This document shows, in pieces, positions 4,329 to 63,189 of a stretch of DNA of 64,000 nucleotides; the stretch's first letter is position 1, and each line of letters begins with the position of its first letter. The notes under the pieces were generated by a model. It did not search any database, had not been told where the DNA came from, and worked only from the letters and a program-made list of their open reading frames with translations. The position numbers were made by a program, and so were the translations under genes. Location: UHGV virus genome UHGV-0180032; one strand, written 5' to 3'. The stretch comes from a virus.

Positions 4329-5180
4329 ATGATTGACATTTATACAGATTACGCCGCCGTTCTTACCGTCAATCGTTCGGAGGAACGTGCTGCACCGTTT
4401 CTGGATTTAGTCACGCTTTGCATGGACTACGGATACGACGTTGCGTTAAGTGATGTATACTGGCAACCGTCTTCTGACCCGGCAGACGAAACGGTTCGAT
4501 TAGAAGGCATTATCGTTAAGTGTGCGGTAGCGTTAGGTAACCGACTAGGGATAGCGTTAAATCCCCAGGAAGTTTACCATAAACCCAAAGAGACCGTACG
4601 TATTCTGGACGGTATTACTTCCAAGTTTGAAGAGTTCGAAGACACCGATACGCTTTACGGTATTGTGATGTCGGGCGAGACGCCGGAACACATTCTGGAA
4701 AGTATCTGTCGTTATGTTTACGGTGACGATAATATCCATTTCGAAGATCTGGTTGTTCGAGTGTCTCCTCGTGTAATGACCGTGATGAGAAACTACCTGT
4801 CTTCTGTGACCGTAGACGAACAATTAGCGGCAGGTAACGACAGACGTTTGTCTCGTATCGCTGATTACCTTCGTTTATATCCTCAAAACCCATCTGCATT
4901 CGTATTCCTTAACTTACCAGACCTGCCTGATTTGACCGTGGTTCAGCAGTCGCTGGTCTTCGATGTCGAGGACTACTCGGAAGCCGAGCTGTTGGAAATG
5001 TATGCAGTGGGCTTAACGATTATCGATAACGAGGATTACGAAGATGCGTATGGTGCGTTATCAGAGAACCTGGAGAAGCTCAACAACGAAGGGTTAAAAC
5101 CTATTCCTATCTTGCAACCTGCTCTGGAAAGCTTGAAGGAGATTTATAAGGTAGCGGAGGAAGACAATGACGAGATTTGA
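4329..5180 (+). CDS. hypothetical acidic protein (284 aa)
   Basis: ATG 4329 with AAAAGG upstream; ORF-track start at 4293 is TTG inside terminator T-run so internal ATG preferred. Confidence 0.7.
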   Translation: MIDIYTDYAAVLTVNRSEERAAPFLDLVTLCMDYGYDVALSDVYWQPSSDPADETVRLEGIIVKCAVALGNRLGIALNPQEVYHKPKETVRILDGITSKFEEFEDTDTLYGIVMSGETPEHILESICRYVYGDDNIHFEDLVVRVSPRVMTVMRNYLSSVTVDEQLAAGNDRRLSRIADYLRLYPQNPSAFVFLNLPDLPDLTVVQQSLVFDVEDYSEAELLEMYAVGLTIIDNEDYEDAYGALSENLEKLNNEGLKPIPILQPALESLKEIYKVAEEDNDEI

Positions 5181-6468
5181 GTTTCTGGTGGCGGCTTGTA
5201 AAGCCGAAGCCTGGCGTCGTTTAGTGTGGCGTATTGCAATATTCAACATGTCAGTGTTCCCGTCGAATCGTGAAGAACCCGAAGCGTACGATATTACGTA
5301 TATCGACGGAATGCCGCACTACTACGCGGTAGAAGATGGGAAAGGTGATTGGCAGCCGATTACTGATGGCGTGAAAGACCAAGAACTGTTTATTCCTGAA
5401 GAACAGTTTGAGTTGAAAGTCGATGACTACCCAGGATTAGAAGGACCGATTCCTACTACCGTAGGACGTTATATCTTTAACTGGGTTGTTATCTGGTATG
5501 CGTTCGGTACACGCTTGCCGTATATGGGCATTTCACAAAACCCATTAGAGTATCGTAAAGAGATGCACCGCCGTTGTTTGGATCACGAAACCGATGAACC
5601 TGAGAACGAAGGTGCTATTCGTCCGAGCATGATAGAACGCTTTGTAAGCGGCTTACACGAGCTTGCACCGTTAACCGCTGGTATTGCACCAACAGGTACA
5701 CTTAGAAGCCTTACAGTGCATCCTGATGCGTATAAAATACGTGATGCGTTGCTGTTAAAGCATAAGGACGAGTTAGACGACCCCGCTGTGATTGTTAAGA
5801 TAGAAAAAGCACTGGACGAACTGGATAAACAGTGGTTGTCGGGTGACCAATCTATCGAGTTCTATAACTCGCCAAAATCACGAATGCGTCGTCGTAAGTT
5901 GATGCTGATGTACGGGATTGAATCGTCTTTCCAGGAAGGGGGTAACTATACGTTAATTCCTAACGCACTGGTGGAAGTCGATAAGGCGGGAATGGATAAC
6001 CTGGTCGCGAAGTTTAACTCTATTCGTGAAGGTTCGTTCTCGCGTGGTGCGGAAACGGCGAAAGGTGGGGAACAGGTACGTATCATTCAGATGATCTTCC
6101 AGAACCACCGAATCGTTACAGGTGACTGCGGGACGAAACTCACGCACCCTGTGGTTATCACAAAAGACAACGTAAAACGTTACGTTGGGATGAACGCGAT
6201 GGTTAATGGGAAGTTAACCTCCCTGACGGAAGAGTTTTTGAATAGTCAGCTAGGGAAAGTTGTGCGCCTACGCCGACCCATCTTATGTCAATACGGCCAC
6301 ATCGACTGCTGTACTGCGTGCTCCTCCGAAGCGAAAGGTGAAGAACCTCGCGCTATCGCAGCGGATATTTCGTCAGCGTTCTCTAACGTTATGTCCGTGG
6401 CAATGGCCGCAATGCACGGTAAAGAAACCGTCGTTCACGAATACGATCCGTTGATCCATATCACCTAA
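5167..6468 (+). CDS. hypothetical protein (433 aa)
   Basis: ATG 5167 with GGAGG 6 nt upstream; overlaps upstream stop. Confidence 0.7.
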   Translation: MTRFEFLVAACKAEAWRRLVWRIAIFNMSVFPSNREEPEAYDITYIDGMPHYYAVEDGKGDWQPITDGVKDQELFIPEEQFELKVDDYPGLEGPIPTTVGRYIFNWVVIWYAFGTRLPYMGISQNPLEYRKEMHRRCLDHETDEPENEGAIRPSMIERFVSGLHELAPLTAGIAPTGTLRSLTVHPDAYKIRDALLLKHKDELDDPAVIVKIEKALDELDKQWLSGDQSIEFYNSPKSRMRRRKLMLMYGIESSFQEGGNYTLIPNALVEVDKAGMDNLVAKFNSIREGSFSRGAETAKGGEQVRIIQMIFQNHRIVTGDCGTKLTHPVVITKDNVKRYVGMNAMVNGKLTSLTEEFLNSQLGKVVRLRRPILCQYGHIDCCTACSSEAKGEEPRAIAADISSAFSNVMSVAMAAMHGKETVVHEYDPLIHIT

Positions 6469-19319: not shown

Positions 19320-19378
19320 GGGGGCCCCTCATTCTAGGGGCGTGTAATTGGGTTATATAACCAAAGGAAATAAACGAA

Positions 19379-19425
19379 ATGGCAAATTTCGCAAAAACTC
19401 GCGCCGCTCGTGAATCGATGGAAGC
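19379..19425 (+). repeat. 47-nt direct repeat, identical to 20727..20773
   Basis: atggcaaatttcgcaaaaactcgcgccgctcgtgaatcgatggaagc present at both gene starts, then abrupt divergence. Confidence 0.9.
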
Positions 19426-20650: not shown

Positions 20651-20726
20651 TTAGACTTACGCTCGTACAGTTCTTGAAATAAATCAATAGGGGAACACGT
20701 CGTTCCCCTTAGAGGAAAAGCTTAAA

Positions 20727-20773
20727 ATGGCAAATTTCGCAAAAACTCGCGCCGCTCGTGAATCGATGGAAGC
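20727..20773 (+). repeat. 47-nt direct repeat, identical to 19379..19425
   Basis: Exact nucleotide identity read directly. Confidence 0.9.
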
Positions 20774-22007: not shown

Positions 22008-22054
22008 GAGAACCACCCTGTAATGGGGTGGTTCTCCCTTTTCTTTTTTTTTTC
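22008..22054 (+). terminator. rho-independent terminator
   Basis: stem gagaaccaccc/ggggtggttctc followed by an ~18-nt T-run. Confidence 0.75.
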
Positions 22055-22071
22055 GCATTAAAAATAATCTT

Positions 22072-22107
22072 AGATATATATTACCTTAGTGAGATTACGC
22101 TGTAATC
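22072..22107 (+). promoter_or_regulatory. phage promoter motif (AGATATATATTACCTTAGTGAG) plus dyad gattac-N5-gtaatc
   Basis: One of five copies of the motif; contains TATATTAC; sits ~40 nt upstream of ATG 22145. Confidence 0.45.
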
Positions 22108-22144
22108 TTTTAACGACCTGTTTATTACGTTTAGGAGAATTATC

Positions 22145-22786
22145 ATGACACGTTACAATTTAGCTGACTTCTGCGATTGTGCCTTTTCTGTTGAAGGTGA
22201 CAAACTTGTAATGGCTGCGCCAAACGCAAGAGTCTTATCGTTGTATCAAGCCGAAGTTATTGCAATTTCGATTTGGTTAGCAAGGGCTATAGACGGCGGC
22301 TGTAAGGACCTTGATAAAGAAGTGTTGAAAGTCGGTCGTCGTGAATTTGTGTATAAAGCAGAAATCCAGAGCCGTTTACCGCAGACCTTTTTAAGCAACT
22401 TGCTTAAAGATGTCAACACCCCAGTTGTCAGCCGAACATTTGACGGGGTGAAATACTACTCTTTTGAAGATTCGCACATTGCTATCTGTGAAGGCGAGAA
22501 TAAGTTTTTTACGACCGTTATCTACTTTCGTATTGCCGAACCTACGAAAGAAGAACTGGTTTGCAACACTGCGAACGATGTGGCCGTGATGCGTATGGAC
22601 GATATCACCAGTGCACTATCTGGATTAAATGACATACCGCGTATTGTGGAGCGAGTCTTGGAAGGAGACGATTACTTTAAGCTGCTTCCGCTGGTAGCAA
22701 GCGAAGAAACAGAACAGGAAAGCGCTTTCATTCAGGTTAACCTTACCGCTGCGCAGGCGGTAGATCGTTTCTTCGAAGCTTTATAA
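22145..22786 (+). CDS. hypothetical protein (213 aa)
   Basis: ATG with AGGAGAA upstream; own promoter motif and terminator. Confidence 0.7.
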   Translation: MTRYNLADFCDCAFSVEGDKLVMAAPNARVLSLYQAEVIAISIWLARAIDGGCKDLDKEVLKVGRREFVYKAEIQSRLPQTFLSNLLKDVNTPVVSRTFDGVKYYSFEDSHIAICEGENKFFTTVIYFRIAEPTKEELVCNTANDVAVMRMDDITSALSGLNDIPRIVERVLEGDDYFKLLPLVASEETEQESAFIQVNLTAAQAVDRFFEAL

Positions 22787-22793
22787 TCAGAAT

Positions 22794-22819
22794 GCCCTCT
22801 ACGGAGGGCTTTATTTTTT
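22794..22819 (+). terminator. rho-independent terminator
   Basis: stem gccctc/gagggc followed by tttatttttt. Confidence 0.6.
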
Positions 22820-22839
22820 CGACCTTTAGGAGAATAGAA

Positions 22840-23391
22840 ATGAACAAATTTAATATCTTAGACGCTAAAATCGTATCCGAGTCTTCTATTCAGCAAGAAA
22901 TCTTTCGTGTTCAGTTCGGTGAGAAAGTTTTGAATATTCCGCGCCCAGTTATGATTGGGTTAGCGATATTCGTTAACAACAGCCATTGTAACGGTTCGGC
23001 GTTGTCGGTTCTTGAGTACGGTAACTATCAGTTCTATATTCCAGAACACCTCGAGTATAACCGTTTCATCGAACTTAAACCGTTCTATAAGTTCATGCTT
23101 GATGCGGGCTACTCGATTCTAACCAAAACGTATATTCGTGACTACTCGAAGTTAGAATCTTTCTATCGTGCTCGTGGTTTCCGTGTCCCACAACCGTTTG
23201 ACGGATACCAGACCCGTGTTGTGTTAACTGCACCGTTAACGAAAGAATTGGCTTCCTACAAACTGGATATCGAGCAGAAACTGCTGCGTGACGACTTACT
23301 GAAAATCTATAACCAGTTGTCCGTGGTGCCTTCTTCAACTATCTCGAACATTGAACCGGAGTACGGAATAAGACAATACATGGAAGGTTAA
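22840..23391 (+). CDS. hypothetical protein (183 aa)
   Basis: ATG 22840 with AGGAGAA upstream. Confidence 0.65.
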   Translation: MNKFNILDAKIVSESSIQQEIFRVQFGEKVLNIPRPVMIGLAIFVNNSHCNGSALSVLEYGNYQFYIPEHLEYNRFIELKPFYKFMLDAGYSILTKTYIRDYSKLESFYRARGFRVPQPFDGYQTRVVLTAPLTKELASYKLDIEQKLLRDDLLKIYNQLSVVPSSTISNIEPEYGIRQYMEG

Positions 23392-30203: not shown

Positions 30204-30327
30204 TACTCGTAAATGCGTCTTAGACGCTGTTTTACACCTTAAGACGATTAATGGTGTTTAAAAAATAAAAGGTCGTCAGAATGCGATACAGCGCGTTTTA
30301 GAGGGTGATTTAATTAAAATATTTTCA

Positions 30328-30366
30328 GATATATATTACCTAGGTGAGAGAATTACGTAATACTCA
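30328..30366 (+). promoter_or_regulatory. phage promoter motif (AGATATATATTACCTAGGTGAG) plus palindrome ATTACGTAAT
   Basis: Second copy of motif; 10-bp perfect palindrome 30352-30361; ~30 nt upstream of ATG 30397. Confidence 0.45.
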
Positions 30367-30396
30367 TTTATCGAATACCTAATTAGGAGCTATATC

Positions 30397-30540
30397 ATGA
30401 TTTCTGTAAAACACAAAAAAGCTATCTTCGCTGTTGTTATCGCTGTTGTTCTGGGTTGCCTGTACCTGGATATCGATAAAGGCTACGACACTTGCATCGA
30501 CAACGGTAATTCCGTTGCACAGTGCACTGGTCGTGGTTAA
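30397..30540 (+). CDS. small putative lipoprotein (47 aa)
   Basis: SD AGGAG upstream; signal-like MISVKHKKAIFAVVIAVVLG followed by Cys (lipobox-like VLGC); own promoter motif and terminator; below ORF-track size cutoff. Confidence 0.5.
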   Translation: MISVKHKKAIFAVVIAVVLGCLYLDIDKGYDTCIDNGNSVAQCTGRG

Positions 30541-36897: not shown

Positions 36898-36910
36898 CTA
36901 TTATTTTTTG

Positions 36911-36940
36911 GATAGATATTATCAAAGGGAGACTGTCAGT
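36911..36940 (+). promoter_or_regulatory. degenerate copy of phage promoter motif (GATAGATATTATC)
   Basis: Resembles the AGATAGATATTACC copy at 57829; start of a low-GC island. Confidence 0.3.
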
Positions 36941-36958
36941 TGGTTTAAAGGAGACTTT

Positions 36959-57063: not shown

Positions 57064-57159
57064 TCCTAAAATTTATTACAACCAATAGCTATTATGTGAA
57101 CGCCGGTATGGAATAAAGAAGTATCGGTTTAAATTTTTGTGCGTAAAGGTAAAACAATA

Positions 57160-57783
57160 ATGCTTAAGACAGTGTCTATTGATGGCCCTGACTTTTCTGG
57201 GAAATCGACGTTGTGCAAAATGGTAAAAGGTATGCTGGAATCTGCGGGGTTAAAGGTCTGCATCCGTAATCACCCTACGACGGAGACCGAAGCGGGTATC
57301 CGTGCACGCAGTTTAGTCATTCAGTCCGCAGCAAAAGCAAAAATTGCCGAAGCGATGTGCGACGATTTCCTTCACACATTAGACCATGTTGTTGACGATT
57401 ACGATGTTGTTATTTTCGACAGGTTCTGCCCCTCTACAGTCGTTTACCAGGGCGTCGACGGTAAAGACGAAGTTTTCCGACGTAAGCTAACGCGTCATTT
57501 CCACGCACCCGATTTGTACGTTTGGACGGACGTGGATTACGACGGCGCAGTAGCACGCTTTAAGAAACGGGTAGAAGAACAAGGTAAGAATTGGGACGAT
57601 GAAGTCCTTACCGTTAAGTATTTAAAAGACAGCCAAAGCTGGGAAGCGTTACGTGACCACTACCGTTTCGCACACCACATTCTCACTGAAGGCGGTTGTC
57701 TGCACCATTTATTACCCGTGAAGCAAGACGACGATTACCGTTTAAAAGCGGCTGAAATCGTTGCTTGTATTTTAGAGAATTAA
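57160..57783 (+). CDS. tmk: thymidylate (dTMP) kinase-like
   Basis: P-loop IDGPDFSGKST; DRF.PSTVVYQG matches the Tmk DR(Y/F)..S...YQG motif; ATG 57160. Confidence 0.7.
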   Translation: MLKTVSIDGPDFSGKSTLCKMVKGMLESAGLKVCIRNHPTTETEAGIRARSLVIQSAAKAKIAEAMCDDFLHTLDHVVDDYDVVIFDRFCPSTVVYQGVDGKDEVFRRKLTRHFHAPDLYVWTDVDYDGAVARFKKRVEEQGKNWDDEVLTVKYLKDSQSWEALRDHYRFAHHILTEGGCLHHLLPVKQDDDYRLKAAEIVACILEN

Positions 57784-57790
57784 TCACACA

Positions 57791-57826
57791 CCCCTACCTT
57801 CGGGTAGGGGGTTATTTAATTTTTTC
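57791..57826 (+). terminator. rho-independent terminator
   Basis: stem cccctacc/ggtagggg with ttcg loop, then a T-rich tail. Confidence 0.7.
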
Positions 57827-57828
57827 TC

Positions 57829-57866
57829 AGATAGATATTACCTTAGTGAGATTACGCTGTAATCTC
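57829..57866 (+). promoter_or_regulatory. phage promoter motif (AGATAGATATTACCTTAGTGAG) plus perfect inverted repeat GAGATTAC-GCT-GTAATCTC
   Basis: Near-identical over ~75 nt, including 5' UTR, to the copy at 22072; ~35 nt upstream of HTH gene ATG 57902. Confidence 0.5.
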
Positions 57867-57901
57867 TTTACGACTTGTTCTACAGATTAGGATTAATTAT
57901 C

Positions 57902-58261
57902 ATGGCTTACAATCACAACTCTATTGTTTTAGCAAAACGTAAATTCGGTCTTCATCTTTCTTACGTGATTCGTCATTTGACAGCGAAAGACATTACACAG
58001 CGTGAACTTGCTCAGCTTGCAAAAGTTTCACAACCGGTTATTTCATCCATTAAGAACGATCATAGCGAACGTCCGAGTCTACCAATAATGATGAAGGTTG
58101 CTGATGCAATTCGTCTGAAATATCAGATTACGTTTAATTCCGTTAAAGGACGTTGCTCAGTAACGGTTCACGTAGAGTCTGCGTTGGACTACGTTGCAAA
58201 TACGTCCCTTAAACGTACCGCGAAGAATATTCGTTTTGTTACTAACAGCGCAACACATTAA
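57902..58261 (+). CDS. XRE-family helix-turn-helix DNA-binding protein
   Basis: ITQRELAQLAKVSQPVISSIKNDHSERPSLPIMMKVADAI matches the HTH_XRE pattern; ATG 57902. Confidence 0.65.
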   Translation: MAYNHNSIVLAKRKFGLHLSYVIRHLTAKDITQRELAQLAKVSQPVISSIKNDHSERPSLPIMMKVADAIRLKYQITFNSVKGRCSVTVHVESALDYVANTSLKRTAKNIRFVTNSATH

Positions 58262-62864: not shown

Positions 62865-62896
62865 AAGATATATTTCATCTATGTGAGAATTCTCAC
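62865..62896 (+). promoter_or_regulatory. phage promoter motif variant (AGATATATTTCATCTATGTGAG) plus 14-bp perfect palindrome GTGAGAATTCTCAC
   Basis: Fifth copy of motif; palindrome 62883-62896; ~25 nt upstream of ATG 62920. Confidence 0.4.
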
Positions 62897-62919
62897 TTAA
62901 CTAAATGGAGTAATCTAAA

Positions 62920-63189
62920 ATGGCTAAGATTTACATTGTTGAAAAACGTTCAGGTAATGTTCTTTCTTATCACGAAGAAGGTAAACCCGAAAAAGTTAAA
63001 ACGCTCAAGCTTGAAGGTTTTGATGTGAAAAGCCTGCGTAAAGGCGTGAAGATTACTTTCAAAGGTTTGATTCGTGCAGGTAACTTACACATCATCAAAA
63101 CAGATGGAACGATGGTTGCGTTAGCACCGGCCACCGCTGCGAAAACGACAGCCGGTCGTGGTTGCTACGGCAGCAGTCGTAAGTTTTAA
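62920..63189 (+). CDS. hypothetical small basic protein (89 aa)
   Basis: ATG with AATGGAG upstream; terminator follows. Confidence 0.55.
   Translation: MAKIYIVEKRSGNVLSYHEEGKPEKVKTLKLEGFDVKSLRKGVKITFKGLIRAGNLHIIKTDGTMVALAPATAAKTTAGRGCYGSSRKF

Follow-up and report, generated by a model that had tools for sequence, protein, structure and literature searches.

An early-promoter module family with a predicted 5'-terminal hairpin, and copying between its members, in an SPN3US-like jumbo phage

Introduction

In phiKZ-related phages, the early promoters serve the multisubunit RNA polymerase packaged in the virion. They share a conserved AT box centred near -10 (PMC7598289, PMC8244752), and their published consensus is TATATTAC in phiKZ, TATATTACDWHDGTG in 201phi2-1 and TTTCARRYAKATATTATYWAAGTG in N1M2 and OBP (PMC7058600). 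In 201phi2-1, the last base of the motif lies at the transcription start site (TSS) or at most 2 nt from it (PMC11512511). Here, we describe a promoter-and-leader module that is present twice in a 64,000-nt stretch of the virus genome UHGV-0180032 (the window), which belongs to an SPN3US-like jumbo phage. One copy precedes an orphan gene starting at 22145 (copy A, locus A) and the other the gene of an XRE/Cro-type helix-turn-helix (HTH) protein starting at 57902 (copy B, locus B). The window sites have the same AT-rich box, GTG and spacing as the phiKZ-type early promoters (PMC7058600, PMC7598289, PMC8244752, PMC11512511). Like these, they are intergenic, co-oriented with the genes and present several times per genome, in a phage with split beta/beta' RNA polymerase (RNAP) genes. 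The two systems differ in the leader: the architecture that follows the promoters termed here class I, a hairpin at +1 in a leader of 47-67 nt, is not described in the cited papers and is not evident in phiKZ leaders. Unlike those of the phiKZ-type early promoters, the start and timing of class I promoters are predicted from sequence.

The modules also resemble in part the PeSLs (promoter-early stem-loops) of T4-like phages, composite terminator/promoter cassettes through which modules are shuffled (Arbiol et al. 2010, PMC2839356; Comeau et al. 2014, PMC4122927). These too are short and repeated, combine an early promoter with a stem-loop near a terminator, are scattered over a large lytic phage genome and are acted on by homologous recombination. 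The likeness extends to the orphan beside the locus A cassette, which differs between close relatives with a 5' breakpoint at the ATG. Unlike PeSLs, the window modules carry a promoter for a phage multisubunit RNAP rather than for sigma-70, and their conserved stem-loop is not the terminator but lies downstream of the start, in the leader. Moreover, the main event is cassette-by-cassette conversion rather than gene exchange, and one variable slot was seen.

A stem-loop preceded by 0-2 unpaired nt at an mRNA's 5' end blocks 5'-end-dependent attack by RNase E and RppH, and the leader of T7 phi10 is one such stabiliser. The ompA and papA mRNAs carry others (Emory, Bouvet and Belasco 1992; Bouvet and Belasco 1992; as cited in PMC3997798). 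The class I leader has the same geometry, with 0-2 unpaired nt at the predicted 5' end, an unstructured leader and a strong Shine-Dalgarno (SD) sequence; it differs in that its stems are shorter and AT-rich, its 5' end is predicted and its stabilising role is putative. Finally, the early promoters used by the injected virion RNAP of coliphage N4 are likewise accompanied by a small hairpin, whose loop has 3 nt (PMC4496689). In N4, however, the hairpin is a DNA structure of conserved sequence upstream of the start and is used by a single-subunit RNAP. An N4-type hairpin promoter was rejected for the window, where the hairpin is variable in sequence and lies downstream of the box and of the inferred start, and where the RNAP genes are of the multisubunit type.

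Results

The two segments are near-identical beyond the promoter core

The sequence-only reading had described the two regions as near-identical from the promoter motif to the first codons. Pairwise alignment bore this out beyond the promoter core: from the promoter to TTGTT, 22072-22122 and 57829-57879 are identical at 47 of 51 positions. The exact 29-mer ATTACCTTAGTGAGATTACGCTGTAATCT is present at 22080-22108 and 57837-57865, has no third copy in the window and was expected 0 times based on 100 dinucleotide-preserving shuffles. Across all of IMG/VR, an exact 28-mer has two occurrences, both on the 151.6-kb contig that includes the window (3300045988_095954). The likeness is weaker over the last ~22 nt to the ATG, where TTAGGA and AATTATCATG are held in common and small indels are present. 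At both loci, the leader measures 54 nt from the inferred +1 (G22091, G57848) to the ATG (22145, 57902), and a terminator scan identified terminator-like hairpins directly 5' of both copies (22008-22036; 57791-57810). The likeness of the first codons (MTRYN and MAYN) did not hold up as part of the repeat: it lies outside it, with TACAAT offset by 3 nt, and is a coincidence, as orthologues of gene A begin MSRIN or MNRFQ. The HTH gene retains MAYNHN.

Three independent ENA contigs carry copy A without any difference, and at locus B, two other assemblies again have the A-type leader. The presence of the twin in independent assemblies rules out an assembly artefact. Paralogy of genes A and B was also ruled out, their proteins being unrelated.

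The segments belong to a family of early expression modules

The twin segments belong to a small family of early expression modules, each ~75 nt long, of which there are about 4-7 per genome; complete genomes have 6-7 sites. Each module comprises a promoter, TTTCAGATAKATATTACYTWRGTG; a stem-loop in the first ~19 nt; a spacer that is poor in G and unstructured and that often contains a TTWAC/YGAC box; and an SD and ATG ~54 nt from the start. The promoter motif agrees with the consensus published for early promoters in phiKZ-related phages (PMC7058600, Table 2), and its core at 22072 and 57829 is AGATAKATATTACC-TTAG-TG, an AT-rich box plus GTG at fixed spacing. In the window, the motif family AGATAKATATTAYC has 7 matches against 0.9 expected; clear intergenic copies on the + strand start at 22072, 30327, 36910 and 57829, with a degenerate one at 62866. 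Based on homology and the published consensus, the enzyme that uses class I promoters would be the virion-packaged multisubunit RNAP. As the 201phi2-1 motif ends at approximately the TSS, +1 was placed at the last G of GTG, such that transcripts would begin GAGA...

Relatives were located by protein search: IMG/VR has three related contigs of 221-225 kb, and ENA/Logan has further ones. Two promoter classes were distinguished in scans of SPN3US and IMG/VR, and the module family counts 52 sites in 18 IMG/VR contigs and 7 in SPN3US. Class I promoters (...TTACYTWRGTGAG) are always followed by a hairpin beginning in GAG, a G-poor spacer, an SD and an ATG, in leaders of 47-67 nt, mostly 50-60. The leaders of class II promoters (...TTATC) are ~33 nt long and have no consistent hairpin (mean minimum free energy (MFE) of -2.0 kcal/mol).

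The class I hairpin pairs from the inferred nt 1 in 37 of 47 distinct modules and from nt 3 in 6 more. Over their first 30 nt, the leaders average an MFE of -6.1 kcal/mol, compared with -1.8 kcal/mol for windows lying 75 nt downstream (Wilcoxon p = 1.3e-8); against dinucleotide shuffles, the mean z is -2.3. The stems themselves vary among modules, and include ATTAC/GTAAT, AGTTAA/TTAACT, CGTTA/TAACG, CATTGA/TCAATG and ATGAG/CTCAT. A covariance model built from six seeds aligned 49 sites, and covariation was evaluated over 44 distinct modules. In this alignment, 91.3% of the cells are paired, versus 73.8% in shuffles (0/500 shuffles reaching the observed value), and double-change cells number 60 against 21.4 expected (0/500), with four of the eight pairs showing double changes. 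The covariation score is 0.381, versus 0.136 in shuffles and at most 0.084 in all slid controls. RNAalifold returned no structure from a MAFFT alignment of the hairpins, because loop lengths vary, and Rfam yielded 0 matches at the gathering threshold in the whole window. A TYGAC box is present in 22 of the 47 modules; as it is not universal, it was dropped as a defined element.

Leader types across relatives point to copying between loci

Locus A lies directly after a pair of internal-head-protein genes. At this locus, SPN3US has the promoter followed by GAGATTGCATTGGTAATCTT and TTTAACCGAC, and three IMG/VR relatives have GAGATTAC-ACA-GTAATCTC followed by T(T)TACGAC. The ATTRC/GTAAT stem is thus old at locus A, being present in SPN3US and in all relatives. 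The leader at locus B is of another type, GAGAGTT-ACTACTA-AACTCTC ... TTAATCTAAAGGAGTATT in SPN3US and GAGAGTTA-nnn-TTAACTCT ... TTGTTAACCTAAAGGAGTATT in 12 genomes of the window's clade. An A-type stem and TTTACGACTTGTT are present at locus B only in the window phage, the relative 078609 and a contig from SRR9646721. The HTH proteins of these three are at least 97% identical, and all three have the derived CCTTAGT (-7 to -1) at both loci.

The minimal conversion tract at locus B, 57841..57879 on the + strand, spans -7 to +32 and consists of CCTTAGT, the hairpin and TTTACGACTTGTT; the ancestral GAGAGTTAnnnTTAACTCT..TTGTTAACCTAAAGGAGTATT occupies the same place in 12 genomes, with a similar form in SPN3US. 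The tract starts inside the promoter and stops at or before the SD/ATG, and it is a same-length replacement: the flank upstream of -19 stays B-type, and the coding region is unaffected. The phylogenetic pattern of leader types requires copying between loci. The loops add a further detail, as both copies in the window have GCT, locus A of the three IMG/VR relatives has ACA and locus B of the other two converted genomes has ATC.

The leader identity of the A/B pair, 0.85, ranks second among 71 intragenomic pairs, for which the median is 0.64. The top pair (L027 757-830 and L034 9507-9580, contig 3300029126_000001) is, judging from the sequences, an independent conversion case. In it, the leader of the gene encoding MKNELF... 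has been replaced by that of the gene encoding MNFT..., with the junction between SD and ATG; in 078609, 3300014543_2 and SPN3US, the leader of the former gene has a GAGCGTT-type hairpin. The type phage phiKZ has the same kind of twin (2635-2745 and 4486-4596): starting near -20, its early promoters at 2665 and 4516 have ~64/66 identical nt up to the SD, and the genes that follow encode the unrelated gp006 and gp010.1.

The sequence-only reading had proposed a recombined or transposed cassette. Recombination of a regulatory module stands, in that an A-type leader has taken the place of the HTH gene's former one; transposition does not, the change being an in-place, same-length overwrite with no ends or target duplications. 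Mechanistically, we infer that the locus A module was copied non-reciprocally onto the locus B module, from at least -7 to +32, by ectopic gene conversion that would have been primed by the shared promoter. The first copying would have taken place in the ancestor that the window phage shares with 078609 and SRR9646721, and in a second step the loops would have been homogenised again, both to GCT, in the window lineage. A crossover between the direct repeats would delete 35.7 kb including the major capsid gene, such that conversion products alone would survive.

Locus B and the HTH gene

All features given for the two loci are on the + strand. At locus B, a terminator-like hairpin with a T-rich tail, CCCCTACCTTCGGGTAGGGG (57791..57826; terminator scan), lies 3' of the thymidylate kinase gene (57139-57783; Pfam). 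The class I early promoter AGATAGATATTACCTTAGTG, assigned by the same consensus match as for copy A, spans 57829..57848, with the inferred +1 at G57848; an orthologous promoter precedes the HTH gene in SPN3US and 14 relatives. The predicted 5'-terminal hairpin, GAGATTAC-GCT-GTAATCTC (57848..57866), folds from nt 1 at -8.2 kcal/mol (z = -4.7). It is followed by the spacer (57867..57901), which contains the TTTACGAC box at 57867-57874 and the SD AGGA at 57889-57892, 9 nt from the start codon. Gene B (57902..58261) encodes a 119-aa XRE/Cro-type HTH protein (PF01381/PF13744/PF13443; phrog_7126, 2.9e-31) and is the syntenic orthologue of the SPN3US gene for an 'HTH DNA binding protein' (ACQ60_gp165), which also follows thymidylate kinase.

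Locus A and its gene slot

At locus A, a terminator-like hairpin with a T-run (22008..22050; 13-bp stem GAGAACCACCC..GGGTGGTTCTC, terminator scan) ends the internal-head-protein operon. The class I early promoter AGATATATATTACCTTAGTG, of the virion-RNAP type according to the published phiKZ-related consensus, spans 22072..22091, with the inferred +1 at G22091. The hairpin GAGATTAC-GCT-GTAATCTT (22091..22109) would form the first 19 nt of the transcript, based on RNA folding from nt 1 and on covariation. The G-poor spacer (22110..22144) contains the TTAACGAC box at 22110-22117 and the SD AGGAG at 22133-22137, with 7-nt spacing.

Gene A (22145..22786) encodes a 213-aa protein that sequence searches identify as a clade-restricted orphan in a variable slot. 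It has no Pfam or PHROG match and no tblastn match among 50,697 phage records; in an exhaustive HMMER search, its homologues are confined to this clade, plus one at 36% identity. Residues 80-169 are ~27% identical to six cadherin-domain repeats of a 1749-aa metagenomic protein (whole-protein E = 4e-11), and the product may hold an Ig/cadherin-like beta-sandwich. The weak cadherin-repeat likeness and the 36% homologue are insufficient for assigning a function to gene A, and the AlphaFold model of its product is unusable (pLDDT 44.6).

The 3' neighbour in the slot (22792-23391) is orthologous to SPN3US gp210 (E = 7e-37). Gene A is unrelated to SPN3US gp211, although both fill the one slot. In the closest relative, 078609, homology with the window spans the leader to the ATG, stops, and restarts 33 nt before the stop codon; its slot (2315-2491) has a 58-aa open reading frame (ORF) instead of 213 aa, with only the last 10 residues in common. 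The 140-nt middle segment of this slot has no match among the retrieved loci. This change resembles PeSL-bounded gene replacement in T4-like phages (PMC2839356, PMC4122927), by analogy and in a single case. The remaining class I modules sit before conserved genes.

Other promoter sites and candidate early RNAs

Three further sites are present on the + strand of the window. A third class I module, at 30327..30399 (covariance-model match 30335-30377), has a weaker, different hairpin, GAGAGAATTACGTAATACTC, an TTTATCGA box, an SD and the ATG of a 47-aa gene (phrog_8574). At 62866..62922, the degenerate site AGATATATTTCATCTATGTGAGAATTCTCAC has a perfect 14-nt palindrome at the inferred start, TTAAC, an SD and the ATG of an 89-aa gene (phrog_12339); it falls below the covariance-model threshold and may be a diverged member of the family. 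Just 3' of the major capsid gene, a class II promoter, GGATAGATATTATC (36910-36950), has a short leader and no hairpin and matches SPN3US 72488.

Two arrangements among relatives have no gene start after the hairpin. In SPN3US, a class I promoter and hairpin at 165689-165790 are followed by the terminator GGCTACCTTCGGGTAGCC and a T-run, with no intervening ORF start, suggesting a candidate early small RNA of ~55 nt. In three contigs (L019 5935-6060; L023 1273-1400; L063, minus strand), the class I promoter with its hairpin leads into ~90 nt that end in GGCCCTGTAG...CTACAGGGCC and a T-run and that contain neither SD nor ATG. From its sequence, this conserved element is a candidate non-coding early RNA.

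Identity of the phage

The window derives from an SPN3US-like, phiKZ-related jumbo phage, as established by its PhiKZ_MCP and phiKZ_IP Pfam domains, the identity of its major capsid protein and an RNAP beta-like subunit. It encodes two phiKZ internal head proteins, a thymidylate kinase and a PhiKZ-type major capsid protein (Pfam, PHROG), the last of which is 78-79% identical to its counterparts in Salmonella phage SPN3US and Erwinia phage phiEaH2. The + strand carries nearly all of the ORFs. The product of the RNAP beta-like subunit gene (5167..6468, + strand) is 72% identical to SPN3US gp224 ('RNA polymerase beta subunit'; phrog_2962, 8.6e-170); the phage encodes its own multisubunit RNAPs. 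Eight split beta/beta' RNAP subunit genes are annotated in SPN3US. A megablast of the locus B region against the 50,697 phage records returned no match. An HTH homologue 97% identical to that of the window bears the NCBI name Salmonella enterica, on a contig of 222.8 kb, and one ENA metagenome series holds many relatives of 224-226 kb. Salmonella or a close enterobacterium is the probable host, and the complete genome probably measures ~225 kb.

The 5' ends of the two tandem internal-head-protein paralogues (19377-19425 and 20725-20773) are 100% identical over 49 nt, and the remainder has diverged. In relatives, the second paralogue begins with MANFYKNKIARESMES rather than MANFAKTRAARESMEA. 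On sequence grounds, this looks like another local gene conversion.

Discussion

The data are probably best explained by a family of class I modules in which locus A has overwritten locus B and in which the hairpin acts as a 5'-terminal stem-loop of the mRNA rather than as an operator for the HTH protein. Among 5' ends, RppH acts preferentially on single-stranded ones (PMC3997798). At the 5' end of the transcript, the hairpin would hinder 5'-end-dependent decay by RppH and RNase E of early mRNAs made before the phage takes over the cell, and the G-poor spacer would keep the SD accessible. This putative stabilising function follows from the position of the hairpin and from the biology of mRNA decay in E. 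coli.

Several observations weigh against this explanation. Because the covariation alignment had been fitted to the structure of the model and relatedness is common among its sequences, the shuffle statistics overstate independence. G.U-type pairs outnumber A.C pairs by 37 to 6, but by only 11 to 6 when the first pair is excluded; with this weak asymmetry, an RNA structure on the sense strand is favoured and a role at the DNA level is conceivable. The two window stems, rich in AT, are of modest stability (-5.5 and -8.2 kcal/mol), and the window module at 30327 folds poorly. Early leaders of phiKZ have no consistent hairpin, so the hairpin is not generally required by this polymerase family. 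We found no mapped TSS for SPN3US-like phages in the literature searched, and the 5' end was placed by analogy with phiKZ, 201phi2-1 and AR9. Finally, the 3' limit of the conversion tract is ambiguous, as the SD-proximal part of copy B is close to neither parent.

The role of the hairpin could be construed differently. The sequence-only reading had proposed that the shared inverted repeat GATTAC-GCT-GTAATC is a double-stranded DNA operator of the XRE-type HTH protein, mediating autoregulation and co-regulation of the gene at 22145. The near-perfect palindrome overlaps the start region of the HTH gene's own promoter, its half-site spacing fits a dimeric HTH protein, and the protein has a genuine HTH_3 domain. 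However, hairpins of other sequence lie at the same position in all class I modules, including those before unrelated genes, in 18 contigs, and the stems tolerate G.U-type pairs. Moreover, the HTH gene has another palindrome in 12 relatives and in SPN3US: in the lineage of the three converted genomes, GAGAGTTA..TTAACTCT was exchanged for GAGATTAC..GTAATCTC, and the HTH recognition region, TQRELAQLAKVSQPVISSIKN, is invariant in 15 genomes (residues 28-50 are KDITQRELAQLAKVSQPVISSIKN). Because the palindrome changed without a change in the recognition region, the operator reading is disfavoured, and we consider it very unlikely; the HTH protein could still bind something common to all modules. 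Nor is co-regulation a special link between genes A and B: as SPN3US and the sister clade indicate, both genes had the same early-promoter class before the event, as do several other genes per genome. Alternatively, the hairpin might act in the DNA or during transcription, as part of an extended promoter or initially transcribed region on which the sigma-less virion RNAP would depend for opening or escape, or as a pause or attenuator, formed by a hairpin and U-run, that would regulate the amount of early transcription. The hairpin keeps a set position with respect to the promoter across all class I modules, T-runs (TCTTTT) follow many hairpins, and the G.U/A.C asymmetry is weak. In addition, the region downstream of the TSS reportedly matters for the phiKZ non-virion RNAP (PMC7598289), and premature termination in 5' untranslated regions has been reported for 201phi2-1 (PMC11512511). 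Nevertheless, the stems have just 2-3 G-C pairs and are not called as terminators, several modules (of the CTCTCACTTAAC type) lack a T-run, and, per the literature, class II and phiKZ early promoters work without such a hairpin. The sequence also varies freely while pairing is kept, as is typical of RNA structure. A role at the DNA or transcription level is therefore unlikely, if the most credible of these alternatives. We regard as somewhat less credible still a broader proposal in which the class I leader is an address label for the first virion-RNAP transcripts, its members interchangeable by frequent ectopic conversion and serving as PeSL-like landing pads for orphans such as the gene at 22145. 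Under this proposal, the leader might mark transcripts for exit from the vesicle, for preferential translation or for later selective shut-off in SPN3US-like, nucleus-forming phages, and the swapped-in orphans would be early anti-host or anti-defence genes.

The origin of the twin also admits other accounts. A mobile, moron-like promoter cassette carrying the gene at 22145 might have been inserted at one locus from the other. The gene is an orphan restricted to this clade, the content of its slot varies from relative to relative, and the composite of terminator and promoter resembles the PeSL cassettes of T4-like phages (PMC2839356, PMC4122927). However, SPN3US, of a different genus, already has a class I module at both loci; the A-type hairpin is ancestral at locus A; and at locus B, a stretch of unchanged length was replaced within a module that was already there, with B-type flanks kept and no associated terminal repeats, target duplications or recombinase gene. 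Such an insertion is thus extremely improbable. The same holds for convergence of the leaders by independent point mutations under a common constraint. Class I leaders do share their architecture and ~64% background identity, and a handful of changes could turn the ancestral B hairpin into the A type. Convergence would nevertheless need to produce 16/16 stem positions, the derived CCTTAGT and the same GCT loop, when GCT is present at neither locus in relatives; furthermore, the L027/L034 pair repeats this pattern, and its junction, between SD and ATG, is sharp.

With one class I module copied onto another, the twin exemplifies a behaviour that is general, and rather ordinary, among the repeated early-promoter modules that phiKZ-related phages carry. 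What is modestly new is the architecture of the class I leader, with its covarying hairpin at +1, and the documented concerted evolution of the modules. An apparently special link between two genes thereby becomes a general rule: a subset of early promoters has a standard leader, and the modules exchange sequence. In evolutionary terms, the modules evolve in concert, and one orphan replacement is bounded by a module; we found no report of such cassettes for this lineage. For annotation, the family flags the earliest genes of SPN3US-like jumbo phages and the likely starts of their transcripts. It further suggests a built-in 5' structure on the early mRNAs of these phages, which would be made while the genome, once injected, still sits in the early-infection vesicle.

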